A stretch of 64,000 bases of DNA from a virus: positions 1 through 64,000 of IMG/VR virus record IMGVR_UViG_3300030116_003118; one strand, written 5' to 3'. Of the stretch, positions 55,655-63,199 are shown piece by piece (position 1 is the first letter of the stretch; each line of letters opens with the position of its first letter). The notes below the pieces were generated by a model. That model saw only the letters and a program-made list of their open reading frames with translations. It ran no database searches and was not told the origin of the DNA. Position numbers and translations under genes: made by a program.

Positions 55655-55855
55655 ATGTTATTGACTATAATGAATGATACTGGACACACGACCTTAGAAG
55701 TTACGGCTGAAGAGGTTATAGACCAAATTAACGACCATCCGACCCACTGGGTTTTTATTGATGGAGAGATTACTTCAAGAGAAACAATCTCAGAAGTTAA
55801 TTGGGATTCTGTTGAGTCTGTTGACTTGACACAGGCTATTGTTGGCGGCTACTAA
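55655..55855 (+). CDS. Ubiquitin-like (beta-grasp, SAMP/ThiS-like) protein ending GG-Y
   Basis: 66 aa from ATG 55655 (AAGGTGT SD). 'VFIDGE' strand and 'VDLTQAIVGG' terminus, plus one extra Tyr. Confidence 0.75.
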   Translation: MLLTIMNDTGHTTLEVTAEEVIDQINDHPTHWVFIDGEITSRETISEVNWDSVESVDLTQAIVGGY

Positions 55856-55941
55856 GCCCCTTCAATACGTCTAAATTTTTTATGAAGGTAGCAGGGCGTA
55901 CCCCTTGCGCTCTGCTCCTTCGCCCTAATGGGGGTGTAAAT

Positions 55942-56328
55942 ATGATAAGTGAAGATAATTTTAATTTCATAACCACATCTTATTTTCCTAAGATGATGGA
56001 AATTTTTGGATGGTCTGTAAAGGATTATAATACATATAATAATCTAGCAATAGTGCGAGCAGACTTTTATCCCATCGGACACATACTAGGTTTTAGTAAG
56101 AAAGCAGTAATAGTATGTGATGGGAATATGCTATTTGTTTATAATGGCAAAGAATATGAAGACTTTTCACAACTTTATGAAGAACTGGGGGATAAAGCGT
56201 ATGATACGTTTCCTGACTGGGATATTAAGGTTGAGAAAGAATGGCTAATAAAAGGGCTTAACGGAGAGTGGATTTATTCATTTTCTAATCTAGTCCAAAT
56301 GCCGTATAGAACACAGGTGAAGTGCTAA
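55942..56328 (+). CDS. Hypothetical protein
   Basis: Likely start MISEDNF after a GGGGTG SD. Confidence 0.5.
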   Translation: MISEDNFNFITTSYFPKMMEIFGWSVKDYNTYNNLAIVRADFYPIGHILGFSKKAVIVCDGNMLFVYNGKEYEDFSQLYEELGDKAYDTFPDWDIKVEKEWLIKGLNGEWIYSFSNLVQMPYRTQVKC

Positions 56329-58202
56329 TGAAACAAGAAGAGACAGCGAGAAATATAATGAGTGGAATAACTCATTATCTAAAATATGCAAAATATATAG
56401 GAGCAGAACAGCGAAAGGAGACATGGGAAGAAACTGTTAATAGAAACAGAAACATGCATCTAAAGAAGATGGGTCATTTAGGCCCAGAAGTCTTTAATGA
56501 GATAAATCGTATTTACGATGATTTCGTTATGACAAGAAAGGTTTTACCTTCGATGCGCTCCATGCAGTATGCGGGGAAACCGATTGAAATTGCACCCAAC
56601 AGTATTTACAATTGTGCTTATTTGCCAATTGATGATATTGCTTGTTTCCATGAGATATTCTTTTTATTACTCAATGGAACAGGTGTAGGATTTTCAGTCC
56701 AACGACATCATACTATTCATTTGCCGGAGATTAGAAAGCCTAATCCAAAGCGAAGTAGAAAGATAGTTGTTCAGGATTCTATCGTAGGTTGGGCAGATGC
56801 TATCAAGGAGTTATTCCGTTCTTACACAGGAGAACTAACTCAAAGCCCCCGCTTTATTTACGATGATATTAGACCTATGGGTGCGCCTTTGAAAACAAGA
56901 GGCGGAAAAGCCCCCGGCCCTGAACCTTTAATTGAATGCATGACTATTGTAGAAAACATGCTTAGAGTTAAAGAAGATGGAGATAGGTTGACTCCGCTAG
57001 AATGCCATGATATTATTTGTCATATGGCTAATGCAGTTACAGCAGGTGGAAATAGACGAGCCGCATTGATATCATTATTCAGTGCTGATGACCATGAGAT
57101 GCAAACTTGCAAGTCTGGACAATGGTGGGATGGTAATTCACAAAGAGCAAGAAGTAATAACTCAGCAGTTATTTTGAGAAGTAAAGTAACAAAGGATTAC
57201 TTTAATCAGTTGTGGGATAAAATAGAAGAATCTGGTTCTGGAGAACCCGGAATCTATTTTACGCATGATAAAGATTGGGGAACTAATCCTTGCTGTGAAA
57301 TCGCTCTTAGACCCTATCAGTTCTGTAATCTTACAGAAATAAATGCTAATACTGTAGAAGACGATAAAGACCTGTATGAAAGAGTAGAAGCCGCAACAAT
57401 ACTAGGAACATTACAAGCATCCTATACTGACTTTTATTATCTAAGAGATATATGGAGAGAAACAACAGAACGTGATGCTTTGTTGGGTGTATCTATGACA
57501 GGTATCGCATCTCAAAAAACTGATTTGTTAGATGTAACAGGTGCGGCTTTGAAGGCTAAAGAAATAAACAAGAAGTGGGCAGATATACTAGGAATAAATC
57601 CTGCTTCAAGAATTACTTGTGTAAAGCCTTCAGGAACTTCTTCAATGGTATTGGGAACGTCAAGTGGTATTCATGCTTGGCATTCTGAATACTATATTAG
57701 AAGAATTAGAATTGGTAAGGAAGAACCAATTTATAATTATCTACTTCAAAATCATCCTGAATTGATTGATGATGAAGATGGTAATCCGGCGGGTGCAGTA
57801 ATTGAGATACCTCAAAAAGCCCCAGACCATGCATTAACTGCCGATAAAGAGAATGCATTTGAGTTCCTAGAAAGAGTAAAGAACATGACTATTAGATGGG
57901 TTAACCCCGGACACAGTGATGGTCAAAATACTCACAACATTTCTGCGACTGTCTATATTAAGGATGGTCAATGGGATGAAGTTGGAGAATGGATGTGGTT
58001 AAACAGACATTACTACAACGGCCTTTCATGTTACCCGGAGTTTGCTGTTTACAAGCAAGCACCGTTTGAAGCATGTGATAAGGCAACGTATGAAAAGATG
58101 CTTCAATCTTTGAAAGACGTAGATTTAACTAAGATTGTAGAATTTGATGATTCTACTGATTTTAGTGACCCCGCATGTGGTGGCGGTGGATGTGACATCT
58201 AA
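56328..58202 (+). CDS. nrdJ: Class II (adenosylcobalamin-dependent) ribonucleotide reductase
   Basis: 'LPSMR', 'YNCAY', 'GTGVGFSV', 'GTNPCCEI', 'CNLTE', 'TCVKPSGT', C-terminal ACGGGGC redox pair. Confidence 0.9.
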   Translation: MKQEETARNIMSGITHYLKYAKYIGAEQRKETWEETVNRNRNMHLKKMGHLGPEVFNEINRIYDDFVMTRKVLPSMRSMQYAGKPIEIAPNSIYNCAYLPIDDIACFHEIFFLLLNGTGVGFSVQRHHTIHLPEIRKPNPKRSRKIVVQDSIVGWADAIKELFRSYTGELTQSPRFIYDDIRPMGAPLKTRGGKAPGPEPLIECMTIVENMLRVKEDGDRLTPLECHDIICHMANAVTAGGNRRAALISLFSADDHEMQTCKSGQWWDGNSQRARSNNSAVILRSKVTKDYFNQLWDKIEESGSGEPGIYFTHDKDWGTNPCCEIALRPYQFCNLTEINANTVEDDKDLYERVEAATILGTLQASYTDFYYLRDIWRETTERDALLGVSMTGIASQKTDLLDVTGAALKAKEINKKWADILGINPASRITCVKPSGTSSMVLGTSSGIHAWHSEYYIRRIRIGKEEPIYNYLLQNHPELIDDEDGNPAGAVIEIPQKAPDHALTADKENAFEFLERVKNMTIRWVNPGHSDGQNTHNISATVYIKDGQWDEVGEWMWLNRHYYNGLSCYPEFAVYKQAPFEACDKATYEKMLQSLKDVDLTKIVEFDDSTDFSDPACGGGGCDI

Positions 58203-61402: not shown

Positions 61403-61985
61403 AAATAAAAGAAAAATAATGATAATAGGTGTAGGAGGGATAGGTAGTTATCTAGCCCCTCTTTTGAAAAAGGTTGGTATATACTCAATGTATTTGGCTG
61501 ACCCTGATATAGTAGAGGATAAGAATCTGTTGTATCAAAACTTTAGTAAGGCTACTGTAGGCCAAAAGAAGGTTGATTCTCTTTCGGGAATTAGTGTTGG
61601 TCATGTAAGAAGCCCTTACAATATATTGACAGATGCACAAATCAAAGGTTCTAAATCTGATTTGGTAGTATGCTGTGCAGACAACTTAGACATTAGAAGA
61701 CTTTTGTACCGACAAGGATTTCAAGATGATGCTAAAGTTAAGTGGTTAGATTTAAGAGCGCAAGGTAGAAATGGGGCATTGATTAGTTATTTAACTGACC
61801 CCAAGTTTAGCGATATGTTCTTACAAGGGCCGGATGGTTCTTTCTCCTGTCAAGGAGACCAAGAAGAAATAACACCAGAAACCGTACATTTTACCCATGT
61901 TGCAGTAGCAGGTATGGCCGCACAATGGATTCAAAGATGGTTTAATGGTGAAGAAGTAAAAGATAAAATGGTGATAAATATATGA
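61395..61985 (+). CDS. ThiF/MoeB/E1-like ubiquitin-activating enzyme
   Basis: GVGGIGS, D.D.VE.KNL..QNF, G.KKV, D.VVCC.DN...R, candidate catalytic Cys in FSCQ. Confidence 0.88.
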   Translation: MNENKRKIMIIGVGGIGSYLAPLLKKVGIYSMYLADPDIVEDKNLLYQNFSKATVGQKKVDSLSGISVGHVRSPYNILTDAQIKGSKSDLVVCCADNLDIRRLLYRQGFQDDAKVKWLDLRAQGRNGALISYLTDPKFSDMFLQGPDGSFSCQGDQEEITPETVHFTHVAVAGMAAQWIQRWFNGEEVKDKMVINI

Positions 61986-62707
61986 GTTGGAAATGGACAA
62001 AAGAAGAAAAGGACTTTCTGTGGAAGATTGCACATAGTAAGATGGATGACGGTAAATTACTACCAGACCCATTAGTGGTGCATTTTTACAATCAGAAATT
62101 CCATGATAGAAAAAGAAGTGTAAAAGCAATTGACCATCAGTTGCGAAAACTAAATAAAGAAAAGGAAAATCTAATGAAGATTGAAAAGAAAGTCATGGGA
62201 AGTAACCATGAAAAGATAGAAAAAGAGGTAAAGAAGATGACAGAAAAACAGTTTCCTACAATGGAAAAAGTAAGAAAGAAACACCCGCGTCACTATCCTA
62301 CGCAGAATAGTGGTATGGGTTGGACTCCTTCTGATGATAAGTATTTGTTGGCTAATTGGTCAGCAAATGACGCAAAAAGAAATTCTACTGCAAAGCATCT
62401 AGGTAGAACACTACATGCTTGTAGAAGCAGACTTTTGAAAATCAGAAAGAATCCTGAATACATGAATAGCATATTGGTTCAAAGCCATGAAGTTACCATG
62501 CAGGATAAGGGAGTATATTTGGGTTCAGCAGAAATGAATCCAGTGAACTTTAATGACACAAAGAAAGAAGTTAAAGTTAGCAACAGTGCTAGAAAGCCCG
62601 GTCTGCTAGAGCGACTGCTCGATTGGTTGATTCATCGAGGGGAGCGAAAGCATGAGAAGAAGATTCAAAAGGCTGAAGCCAAGTTGCTAAGATTGCGTGG
62701 TGAATGA
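61982..62707 (+). CDS. Protein with two Myb/SANT-like repeats
   Basis: 'WTKEEKDFL...RSVKAI' and 'WTPSDDKYL...AKHLGRTLHACRSR'. Confidence 0.65.
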   Translation: MSWKWTKEEKDFLWKIAHSKMDDGKLLPDPLVVHFYNQKFHDRKRSVKAIDHQLRKLNKEKENLMKIEKKVMGSNHEKIEKEVKKMTEKQFPTMEKVRKKHPRHYPTQNSGMGWTPSDDKYLLANWSANDAKRNSTAKHLGRTLHACRSRLLKIRKNPEYMNSILVQSHEVTMQDKGVYLGSAEMNPVNFNDTKKEVKVSNSARKPGLLERLLDWLIHRGERKHEKKIQKAEAKLLRLRGE

Positions 62708-63199
62708 ATGATGAGTAATGTTGACGGCTTAGAAATCAGAATCCCTGATTGGAAAGATAAGATAGAATTTTCATACCGTGTGAATACACAACAAGGATTC
62801 CATGATTCTATATGGAACATGTCACAATATGCGTTTGATATTCCCAGAGAGGTTCAAGTGGTGATTGATGACAATGATAAACTTCATATCAGTGTCGGAA
62901 CCCCCGGATTTGTATCCTTTGATGGGCAATTCCCAACAGGAATGAAGTTACCGCTAAAAGAGTGGATTCACACACATCCATTCGGTCAAGCGTATTTTAG
63001 TGCGACTGATAAGAACACGGTGAACATATGGCATTCTAAACTAAACTCTGCTACGGTACTTGGAAAGTATCAAAAAGCAGTTTTAAGATTTAGATATAAT
63101 GATGAAGGTCATCATCTATACACGTTTTCTGAGCGTGAGAATAGATGGAATACTGTCAATAGCGTTATGGAAACGCTTTGGAATGAAGAAGAAGAGTGA
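62708..63199 (+). CDS. JAB/MPN+ (JAMM) metalloprotease
   Basis: 'REVQVVI' Glu and HTHP.....FS.TD JAMM motif. Confidence 0.85.
   Translation: MMSNVDGLEIRIPDWKDKIEFSYRVNTQQGFHDSIWNMSQYAFDIPREVQVVIDDNDKLHISVGTPGFVSFDGQFPTGMKLPLKEWIHTHPFGQAYFSATDKNTVNIWHSKLNSATVLGKYQKAVLRFRYNDEGHHLYTFSERENRWNTVNSVMETLWNEEEE

Follow-up and report, generated by a model that had tools for sequence, protein, structure and literature searches.

Sequence comparisons suggest that a magrovirus encodes its own ubiquitin-like protein-modification set, a reading to which we assign a probability of about 0.6; protein conjugation would be the best interpretation of its function. The virus comes from the ocean and infects Marine Group II archaea (Poseidoniales). 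Its whole record (IMG/VR IMGVR_UViG_3300030116_003118) comprises 84.5 kb; the window, i.e., the whole stretch of DNA that was analysed, consisted of positions 1 to 64,000 of that record. A preliminary description of the window had proposed a tag protein, an E1 enzyme and a JAMM protease as parts of such a set. All three ORFs were found at the coordinates listed below; the genes are real and co-conserved, and their products are predicted to be active. The candidate E2 that the description also named was given no coordinates, and a fourth constant member of the set, a 451-aa cysteine protein, here termed X, had been overlooked. The features are the following:

54226..55392, + strand: virus-specific 388-aa protein with a conserved Cys-x-Cys-x-His...His cluster and a WRWNHP motif
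55655..55855, + strand: putative ubiquitin-like tag precursor, 66 aa, with VGG and then one Tyr at the C-terminus
59259..60614, + strand: protein X, 451 aa, candidate E2-like carrier or ligase-like partner, with invariant C382
61395..61985, + strand: minimal E1-like adenylating enzyme, 196 aa, with a single ThiF domain (Pfam ThiF)
62708..63199, + strand: JAMM/JAB metallopeptidase, 163 aa, with the full JAMM motif

Co-occurrence across magroviruses, which the preliminary description had named as a check on its proposal, was determined in 60 distinct related IMG/VR loci, extending at least 7 kb upstream and at least 3 kb downstream of the E1 gene. The tag, E1, JAB, X and the 388-aa protein were each present in 59 of these 60 loci, which for tag, JAB and X around E1 is far above chance. 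The JAB gene follows the E1 gene in 59/60 viral loci and in 19/20 host loci. The gene between E1 and JAB (61982-62707) was considered as a member of the set and rejected, since it is present in only 10 of the 60 viral loci. In the virus, 5.5 kb separate the tag gene from the E1 gene, and the two share no operon. Among RNA runs, none containing the stretch was listed. Directly upstream of the tag gene is always the gene for the 388-aa protein, whose place in the tagging system is uncertain; this protein had no family matches in Pfam, PHROG, NCBIfam or PADLOC, and a profile built from 21 sequences did not detect it in 61 host genomes.

The tag contains no lysine. VGG was invariant in 61 distinct viral tags and was followed by no residue in 5, one residue in 25, two residues in 30 and seven residues in 1 of them, the tail residues being without conserved identity. 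An invariant VGG with a variable tail would be the signature of a trimmed precursor, and removal of the residue after GG, as postulated in the preliminary description for the VGG-Y end, is strongly backed by this comparison. Invariant in 62 tag sequences were I5, G10, T12, H28, P29, H31, W32, L58, V63, G64 and G65. A profile search yielded 135 relatives at E <= 1e-3, tandem and fused forms among them; searches of Pfam (including ThiS and ubiquitin), PHROG, NCBIfam and PADLOC gave no matches to the tag. Alignment with ThiS-type proteins of the hosts by hhalign had a probability of 72.7%, over the C-terminal 29 columns only, and is the sole fold evidence for the putative beta-grasp of the tag. 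The nearest named ESM-Atlas cluster was ThiS-family (score 0.83), which is a lead only.

The assignment of the 196-aa protein as a ThiF/E1 enzyme was borne out by Pfam ThiF (E = 1.2e-16; 61 bits, cut-off 28.1). Its closest PDB sequence was MoeB (6.4e-9), and the best NCBIfam matches were ThiF and MoeB models, all far under their cut-offs. In a set of 36 virus and host sequences, G12, G14, G15, I16, G17, D36, D38, N44, Q48, K59, D96, R101, W117, D119, R121, C152 and Q153 were invariant. The nucleotide-binding loop is invariant, as are D96, K59 and C152, the latter aligning with the crossover-loop cysteine of the canonical host E1. Viral and host new-type E1s formed one clade apart from canonical E1 in a quick tree (SH-aLRT 100). 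A rhodanese domain, present in the hosts' canonical E1, is missing from the viral enzyme. Also missing is the N-terminal helix of canonical E1, which in MoeB-type enzymes carries the arginine finger. The position of the canonical NLxRQ arginine is occupied by Tyr in the viral E1 and by His in the host new-type E1. Thus, with no N-terminal helix and the arginine replaced, normal adenylation by this E1 is not assured.

The JAMM protease of the preliminary description possesses the complete E...HxHx7SxxD motif (upstream E48; H88-T-H90, seven residues, S98, two residues, D101). Among 82 sequences, conservation of E48, H88, H90, S98 and D101 was 95% or higher at each position, and none of the five varied in 29 sequences from viruses and hosts. 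Pfam Prok-JAB scored 16.9 bits, under its cut-off of 25. A profile search of the PDB showed deubiquitinases as the closest solved sequences to JAB, with AMSH-LP as the best match (1.3e-5), followed by AMSH and Sst2; PDB 6fjv, a "26S proteasome regulatory subunit N11-like protein", was also matched (7e-4).

The conserved part of X is a C-terminal core of about 130 aa, which holds the single invariant cysteine, C382. G327, C382, I383 and D394 did not vary among 31 sequences from viruses, hosts and fusions. Host homologues of X adjoin Ubl-E1-JAB or sit fused behind the tag. Host genomes with X contain 1 to 4 paralogous X domains each, the proteins ranging from 217 to 1040 aa; a single sulfur donor would explain this pattern less well than carriers or ligases would. 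Pfam searches with the 31 X members gave no match common to more than two of them, and none to an E2 family; likewise, X did not match the E2 families in Pfam, PADLOC and NCBIfam (including Prok-E2), and E2 families had no match in the whole viral genome. PDB sequences yielded 0 matches to X at E <= 10, and X proteins show no conservation of the E2 HPN motif.

The host order Poseidoniales carries a homologous chromosomal system, also overlooked in the preliminary description. This related host gene set is uncatalogued, and no published description of the module was found in the literature searched. Host tag genes are polyubiquitin-like, with 2-4 tandem repeats, tri- and tetra-Ubl genes included; such tandem repeats and fusions need cutting after GG. 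Gene fusions in the hosts link all four parts, i.e., tag, E1, JAB and X: a double tag is fused to E1 (P0011, L112), and so is a single tag in P0041; X is preceded by one or two fused tags in four proteins (P0010, P0053, P0028, P0042); and E1 is fused to JAB in 5/5 loci of another host group, which were taken from hosts with an E1 match inside a long open frame. An operon of X-Ubl-E1-JAB was found on L136, and two host loci (L137, L139; 8 kb flanks) had E1-JAB without X nearby. Of 61 host genomes tallied by hand, 37 contained both E1 and X, 2 had E1 without X, 1 had X without E1, and 21 had neither; a hand count showed a strong E1 match in about 119 of 201 genomes of the order. Viral and host tags share the end xxVGG, and viral and host proteins are about 30-40% identical. 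The hosts have, in addition, a separate canonical set, consisting of a ThiS-type protein which ends in GG without a tail (present in 39/41 host genomes) and an E1 of 370-411 aa with rhodanese.

Among known systems, the bacterial Bub/6E class comes closest, although defining features of Bub are absent here. According to the sections of PMC1779556 (Iyer et al. 2006) and PMC11601596 (Ye et al. 2024) used for comparison, type I Bub (6E/6E.1) has 1 to 3 tandem beta-grasp-type repeats (here up to 4), a tag which is fused before its partner and cut after a conserved glycine by JAB, and a minimal single-domain E1 linked or fused to JAB; row 6e of Iyer et al. lists a metal-binding extra protein (PMC1779556), and the 388-aa protein of the virus, with its Cys/His cluster, may be comparable. 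In the same sections, the Bub E1 is without a crossover-loop cysteine and uses Tyr370, and the Bub E2 has Ser333/His335 with oxyester intermediates, whereas the cysteines of E1 and of X are invariant here; the fusion order is JAB-E1 in Bub but E1-JAB in Poseidoniales hosts; and Bub belongs to bacteria, the present set to archaea and their viruses (PMC1779556, PMC11601596). DUF6527 (BubE) was not found in the viral genome, and X, in contrast to the Bub set, had no match to any Prok-E2 family. In BilABCD (ISG15-like), too, Ubl, E2, JAB and E1 are each encoded by a gene of their own; as described in part of PMC11601596, it makes lysine isopeptide conjugates and has a role in virus-host conflict, but it is used against the virus, whereas the present set is carried by the virus. 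It differs further in that the E1 here is a single 196-aa domain and that PADLOC models match the E1 domain only, neither X nor the tag.

Archaeal sampylation in Haloferax employs SAMP1-3, UbaA and HvJAMM1; to our knowledge, there is no SAMP counterpart for poly-Ubl precursors or X. In contrast to sampylation, the hosts here own their separate canonical ThiS-type and rhodanese-E1 set, and the viral E1 reached 24.8 bits with the UbaA model, the cut-off of which is 450. Likenesses are a small archaeal GG-ended protein, a ThiF-type E1, a JAMM protease and, in the portion of PMC2948915 considered, no recognisable classical E2. The Ub/E1/E2/RING/Rpn11 operon of Caldiarchaeum subterraneum likewise combines a JAMM protease with a thioester-type cascade in an archaeon; however, in the excerpts of PMC5654768 and PMC3082918, its ubiquitin, UBC E2 and RING proteins are recognisably of eukaryotic type, none of which is matched by the tag or X. 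The N11-like match of the JAB profile is a parallel to its Rpn11.

It appears unlikely that the trimmed tag, after adenylation by E1, would become a C-terminal thiocarboxylate and deliver sulfur to a metabolite or tRNA, as JAB-partnered ThiS/MoaD-type carriers do in siderophore/cysteine pathways, with the X cysteine as possible persulfide donor. In QbsE/QbsD, two residues are trimmed after GG. Sets of JAB, E1 and ThiS/MoaD-like proteins occur in siderophore sulfur pathways according to part of Iyer et al. 2006 (PMC1779556), and thus a masked GG together with JAB is by itself no argument for conjugation; rows 4a-4e of Table 1 therein list such sets, which, like PdtH/PdtF/PdtG, have a small GG protein with a tail, a GG-exposing JAB and an E1-like enzyme. 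The hhalign result for the C-terminal half of the tag, the ESM-Atlas lead, the ThiF/MoeB models as best NCBIfam matches of E1, and the single invariant cysteine of X, whose E2 fold is unproven, would also agree with a carrier. However, in the sections of Iyer et al. 2006 concerned (PMC1779556), E1s of JAB-associated sulfur carriers are fused to rhodanese, with sulfur-acceptor enzymes in the operon, and rhodanese is never found on the E1s of E1/E2/JAB neighbourhoods. The new-type E1 is without rhodanese, while the canonical E1 of the hosts has it and pairs with the ThiS-type protein (39/41), and sulfur-acceptor enzymes were found neither in the viral genome nor in the host operons read. The absence of sulfur-transfer genes noted in the preliminary description extends over the whole 84.5-kb viral record, where Rhodanese, the PP-loop thiolase family ATP_bind_3, MoaE and the cysteine desulfurase family Aminotran_5 gave no match at E <= 0.1; the host could provide the missing enzymes. 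We know of no sulfur carrier with tandem poly-Ubl precursors or 1 to 4 X paralogues per genome.

E1 alone might transfer the tag, as in Haloferax sampylation, which requires only SAMP, UbaA and the JAMM protease; X would then be a main substrate, an adaptor or a functionally linked effector. This possibility, to which the lack of E2 matches in X and the two host loci without X nearby would lend some weight, is rather doubtful, since one X cysteine is invariant across virus, host and fusion forms, X accompanies E1 in 59/60 viral loci and in the host tally, and the Ubl-X fusions have a counterpart in BubAB, a fusion of Ubl to E2 that is encoded by type I Bub operons and cut by the JAB domain behind a conserved glycine (part of PMC11601596). 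Very improbable as the main function is interference, whether through stripping or excessive processing of host poly-Ubl and conjugates by the viral JAB or through the tag and E1 serving as decoys in competition with host enzymes. The frequency of the homologous host system, the common xxVGG end and the single clade of viral and host E1s are consistent with it, but four parts with intact catalytic residues exceed the needs of a decoy or lone deconjugase, and viral and host proteins share only about 30-40% identity. Interference and autonomous tagging are mutually compatible.

In autonomous tagging, the 66-aa tag would be made with one residue beyond Gly-Gly, which the JAMM peptidase would take off. 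The 196-aa E1 would adenylate the exposed glycine, and the tag would move onto the crossover-loop C152 and be handed to C382 of X, acting as carrier or ligase. Lysines of host or viral proteins would receive the tag, and the same peptidase may release it again. All of these reactions, as well as the targets and the function of X, are proposed here from sequence relationships. Since the four viral parts are related to a gene set of the archaeal hosts, the virus most likely tags proteins itself.

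Three genes of a ubiquitin-like (Ubl) conjugation system had been proposed in the preliminary description of this virus, and all three were borne out. The open reading frame call at 55655-55855 gave a 66-aa product ending in VGG-Y (the tag), 61395-61985 encodes a ThiF-family domain protein of 196 aa (E1; Pfam PF00899, 1.2e-16, 61 bits versus a cut-off of 28.1), and the 163-aa product of 62708-63199 contains a JAMM motif (JAB). IMG/VR was scanned for E1 (71 loci) and for the tag (39 loci), which together gave 109 loci; the 70 in which E1 has 7 kb or more of flank upstream and 3 kb or more downstream were kept, and collapsing identical E1 DNA left 60. 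The genes of the region are listed below, with their occurrence in these loci.

Genes of the region and their occurrence in 60 viral loci (strand where assigned)
53215-53808 (+): two adjoining small proteins, about 100 aa each
54226-55392: 388-aa protein; 59/60
55655-55855: tag, 66 aa; 59/60
Downstream of the tag: 148-aa protein; 31/60
56322-58202 (+): 626-aa ribonucleotide-reductase-like (RNR-like) protein; 40/60
59259-60614: X, a 451-aa protein with one invariant cysteine; 59/60
60611-61402 (+): TFB-like protein; 9/60
61395-61985: E1, 196 aa; the gene on which the loci were anchored
61982-62707 (+): 241-aa protein, between E1 and JAB; 10/60
62708-63199: JAB, 163 aa; 59/60
63370-63825: 151-aa protein; 35/60

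Because of their counts (at most 40 of 60 loci), the RNR-like, 151-aa, 148-aa, 241-aa and TFB-like genes were regarded as passengers. The sole exception for the four constant genes is locus L071, whose E1 is only 28% identical; this IMG/VR contig is much larger (210,263 bases) and holds a distant E1 of the same family, and within 10 kb of this E1 the viral queries picked up neither tag nor X nor JAB. The tag lies 2.5-8.4 kb from E1 in the viral loci (median 5.0 kb). Chance open reading frames are ruled out by conservation and co-occurrence.

The source record, of which the window is the first 64,000 bases, comprises 84,494 bases at an estimated completeness of about 90%, and its relatives in IMG/VR are contigs of 60-100 kb. 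Genes for a portal, an SU10-type major capsid protein, a tail tube and an ATP-dependent DNA ligase are present in the window. The label "magrovirus" is used because of these features and the link to a host, and is not a taxonomic call. A sequencing-run search found the stretch in 20 DNA runs from nine studies, all of them marine or seawater metagenomes, and in no RNA run among the runs listed.

The tag gave no match in Pfam, PHROG, NCBIfam or PADLOC, and the copy in the window is devoid of lysine. Its end is strongly conserved: VGG was kept in all 61 distinct viral tags, and V63, G64 and G65 were invariant in 62 tag sequences. The residues which follow GG vary in number (none in 5 viral tags, one in 25, two in 30, seven in 1) and are not conserved in identity, and many relatives of the tag stop exactly at GG. 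A variable tail behind a fixed VGG is the pattern expected if GG were the functional end and the tail were discarded. When 1.84 billion representatives were searched with a profile of the tag, 135 relatives came up at E<=1e-3. Some of these consist of two or three copies in tandem, with VGG and a short linker at the end of each; in others, one or two copies precede a fused E1 domain (P0041 and P0011) or a large unknown domain (metagenomic proteins P0010, P0053, P0028 and P0042). Against the PDB, a profile search with the tag returned nothing below E 0.03, and in the ESM Atlas its matches were limited to its own viral clusters and a weak lead to ThiS. When a profile of 43 diverse tags was compared with 21 host ThiS-type proteins by hhalign, a match of 72.7% probability (E 3.2e-5) was obtained, confined to the last 29 columns; these columns show the pattern "V-x-V-[DN]-G ... 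V-x-x-x-P-x-V-x-G-G", which characterises that half of ThiS and MoaD. On this match a beta-grasp fold would be likely for the tag.

E1 matched MoeB, Cap2, MccB, Uba4 and UBA5 among solved structures. Its GxGGIGS loop, D36, K59 and D96 are invariant; the full set of invariant residues in 36 virus and host sequences is G12, G14, G15, I16, G17, L24, D36, D38, N44, Q48, K59, Q82, D96, R101, W117, D119, R121, C152 and Q153. The family alignments used here (A2, A5, A6 and A7) are diverse subsets of homologues. The hosts, Poseidoniales (Marine Group II, MGII, archaea), possess a separate, canonical E1, which in five genomes starts with an N-terminal helix, carries NLQRQ and the crossover motif P-S-C, and ends in a rhodanese domain. 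In an alignment with the canonical E1 of these five genomes, C152 fell directly under the crossover cysteine of the P-S-C motif, and E1 residues 5-152 were aligned to positions 32-188 of 250 of the MoeB model PRK05690; the cysteine is numbered C187 in MoeB and C188 in UbaA. As judged from these alignments, E1 has the crossover-loop cysteine of conjugating E1s, C152 being the predicted catalytic residue.

In other respects the E1 of the virus and its host relatives, together called new-type E1, differ from the canonical enzyme: they begin at the Rossmann strand, without the N-terminal helix and without rhodanese, and the Arg of NLxRQ is replaced by Tyr (virus) or His (host). In MoeB-type enzymes the arginine finger is borne on the N-terminal helix, and the missing helix together with the Arg-to-Tyr change could mean an altered chemistry. 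The viral E1 remained far under the NCBIfam equivalog cut-offs for UbaA (24.8 versus 450) and MoeB (TIGR02355, 40 versus 376.55), and likewise for ThiF (PRK08644, 51.6 versus 159) and the PRTRC ThiF and 6A-MBL Cap2 models. In a quick maximum-likelihood tree, viral and host new-type E1s formed one clade apart from canonical E1 (SH-aLRT 100); the virus/host split within this clade is compatible with one change each, at weak support (64 and 53). By these comparisons, new-type E1 is to be regarded as a separate E1 family. A scan of viral contigs with the host Ubl-Ubl-E1 fusion found no relative.

The JAMM residues of JAB (E48, H88, H90, S98 and D101; a Glu upstream of His-x-His-x7-Ser-x2-Asp) were invariant in 29 virus and host sequences, as were S39, D54, G64, V69, P82, W86, T89, P91, A95 and G119. 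The single sequence scored 16.9 against Pfam Prok-JAB, under the cut-off of 25; a profile of the 29 sequences matched AMSH-LP in the PDB (1.3e-5), and also AMSH, Sst2 and an Rpn11-like protein.

Protein X has an invariant cysteine (C382), and host matches span a core of about 130 aa (approximately residues 283-420 of X); an E2 carrier would have an invariant active-site cysteine in a domain of about 130-150 aa. In 31 sequences (23 viral, 4 host and 4 Ubl-X fusions) G327, C382, I383 and D394 were invariant, and L258, R283, L295, N405, D406 and T415 nearly so. The conserved elements are a helix-like R-x-x-x-L-L, a strand-like G-x-x-x-W-x-I, about 50 residues, C-I, about 10 further residues, D, and then an L-x-L-x-N-D helix; this order and the core size would be compatible with a UBC-like domain. 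A conserved HPN before C382 was not seen. Searches of Pfam with the 31 members found no E2 family at E<=10 and no family common to more than two members; a PDB profile search gave 0 matches at E<=10, and nothing was obtained from PADLOC, NCBIfam or the ESM Atlas. The X profile had 325 homologue matches, with no Pfam domain in any of the 120 of 325 listed. Prok-E2_B and Prok-E2_E were not found in the viral genome, nor was UQ_con, a result of little weight since control genomes gave no match either.

The TFB-like and 241-aa genes are interleaved with X, E1 and JAB. The former, with a weak Zn-ribbon match only (E 0.29), was rejected as a member of the system on its occurrence in 9 of 60 loci, and the latter was rejected as an E2, being present in 10 of 60 loci only and having weak Myb-like matches only. 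The constant 388-aa protein had no match in Pfam, PHROG, PADLOC or NCBIfam, and neither DUF6527 nor RING was backed by any family match for it. The RNR-like protein (Pfam Ribonuc_red_lgC, 5.8e-8) showed weak matches to a class II insertion domain and alpha domain and has a Cys- and Gly-rich C-terminus; its gene is located between tag and X in the 40 loci which contain it. The second protein of 53215-53808 has a Cys-x-x-Cys motif and weak thioredoxin-family matches (E 0.03-0.04).

A homologous system is present on host chromosomes. The clusters to which the Ubl-Ubl-E1 fusion and a tri-Ubl protein belong have members named as proteins from metagenome-assembled genomes (MAGs) of Candidatus Poseidoniales or Poseidoniaceae, some on contigs of up to 1.66 Mb. 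On one Poseidoniales MAG contig (L112) a 424-aa Ubl-Ubl-E1 fusion is followed by an overlapping JAB gene. The fusion was matched at 1e-5 in 182 of 201 sampled genomes of the order; by hand count, 119 of the 201 had a strong E1 match (best E <= 1e-16), and the 63 weaker genomes probably match through canonical E1 only, as was observed in the two that were checked. Of 20 host loci, 19 have JAB after E1, and the remaining one is truncated by the end of its contig. One whole host contig of 2,878 bases consists of X (430 aa), Ubl (92 aa), E1 (220 aa) and JAB (185 aa), and in at least 9 further host loci X adjoins Ubl-E1-JAB or comes after JAB. Five loci, drawn from five genomes of 1.3-1.5 Mb, were selected because their E1 match falls in a long open frame; all five encode a lone Ubl and, after it, an E1-JAB fusion of 409-429 aa, and three have X nearby. 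Two host genomes yielded poly-Ubl genes, with three and four repeats.

The X core occurred in 1 to 4 copies per genome in 38 of 61 host genomes, within proteins of 217-1040 aa without a Pfam domain. In the same 61 genomes a hand count gave both X and strong E1 in 37, E1 only in 2, X only in 1 and neither in 21, an agreement which is inflated by relatedness. The hosts also keep a canonical set, with a ThiS-family gene in 39 of 41 genomes and the rhodanese-bearing E1 in five of five. Mis-binned viral contigs were considered as a source of the host matches and rejected, since the viral 388-aa protein was absent from all 61 host genomes (0/61) and host contigs reach 0.78 to 2.06 Mb.

The host poly-Ubl genes L175:5826-6680 (genome G168, 4 repeats) and L176:5710-6408 (G036, 3 repeats) are flanked on one side by similar proteins (469 and 548 aa) and on the other by a protein of 383-388 aa; in a family scan of L175 only, the neighbours were class II aldolase-like and an RFC-like AAA+ ATPase. 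These neighbours may be a clue to the site of action of the host system. In two host loci (L112:11616-11915 and L138:7632-7925) JAB is followed by a small acidic open reading frame of about 97-99 aa, with a common E-D-E-D-E-R ... A-x-A-x-G-x-G motif, which could be a regulator. In three genomes (G005, G014 and G058) the canonical E1 with its rhodanese has a short X paralogue (open frames of 245-288 aa) at a distance of about 9 kb; this could reflect nothing more than synteny, or else a connection of the two Ubl systems.

The preliminary description had interpreted the three genes, and the absence of sulfur-transfer genes from the window, as evidence that the virus runs its own protein conjugation. 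This interpretation is supported in part: the genes stand, and the sulfur-transfer families searched for (named below) were not seen in the viral genome; conjugation itself would be the preferred reading, with sulfur transfer by the tag set as its main rival. The inventory consists of a precursor tag with a GG end, a JAMM peptidase, an E1 bearing the crossover cysteine, and X with its single invariant cysteine. Because it fits a thioester-type Ubl pathway, and because fusions join Ubl to E1, E1 to JAB and Ubl to X, protein conjugation is favoured, with X as the putative carrier or ligase. For sulfur transfer, the partners might come from the host and a persulfide might be carried by the cysteine of X. 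Against this, new-type E1 is without the rhodanese which the canonical host E1 possesses; no rhodanese was found in E1 or across the viral genome, and acceptor or donor families are likewise absent from it (PP-loop thiolase, MoaE and cysteine desulfurase were not found). According to Iyer et al. (PMC1779556), rhodanese is never present on the E1s of E1/E2/JAB neighbourhoods. JAB-linked sulfur carriers of the Pdt/Qbs type have an E1-rhodanese fusion and acceptor enzymes, whereas the viral set has neither.

Sampylation, Bil, the Caldiarchaeum cascade and the JAB-linked sulfur carriers each resemble the viral set in some parts and differ in others, and the nearest described class is Bub/6E. According to two accounts (PMC1779556, PMC11601596), 6E and Bub comprise polyUbl, a Ubl-E2 fusion which JAB cuts behind a conserved glycine, and JAB fused to E1; Bub is bacterial and forms Tyr/Ser oxyesters, with a Ser/His pair in E2 and a DUF6527 protease, BubE. 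The E1 of Bub type I has Tyr and no crossover-loop cysteine, whereas C152 of E1 and C382 of X are both invariant here; DUF6527 was not found in the viral genome. In Bub type I the tag is fused to its E2 and released by JAB; here, four metagenomic proteins are Ubl-X fusions and the virus has separate genes. On these sequence features the viral set would be a parallel variant and not a member of Bub.

We propose, at a rough probability of 0.35 and therefore tentatively, that MGII archaea and their viruses possess an uncatalogued thioester-type ubiquitination cascade, of which the virus would hold a private, orthogonal copy for tagging host or virion proteins. Such a cascade would be composed of polyubiquitin-like precursors, a minimal cysteine E1, E2-like cysteine carriers that form a new family and have several paralogues in each genome, and a JAMM deconjugase. 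Viral tagging during infection might, for example, redirect host proteolysis or mark the virus's own assembly intermediates.

Few systems of Ubl conjugation are known outside eukaryotes, namely sampylation, the Caldiarchaeum cascade, bacterial Bil, Bub and CBASS. The main texts of three papers on magroviruses and Poseidoniales viruses, including PMC5434244 and PMC11706807, make no mention of JAB, ThiF, MoeB or ubiquitin. In the library searched there was no paper on magrovirus together with ubiquitin or ThiF, and nothing related on Poseidoniales together with ubiquitin-like proteins. Two protein families which Pfam does not model, those of the tag and of the cysteine protein X, are defined here, and the biochemical hypothesis is directly testable with four small proteins. 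A complete set in an abundant group of viruses of ocean archaea would add a case of virus-encoded Ubl conjugation in archaea. The host order is among the most abundant of marine archaea, and most of its sampled genomes have the homologous chromosomal system; with that system, polyubiquitin-like precursors would no longer be confined to eukaryotes and bacteria.
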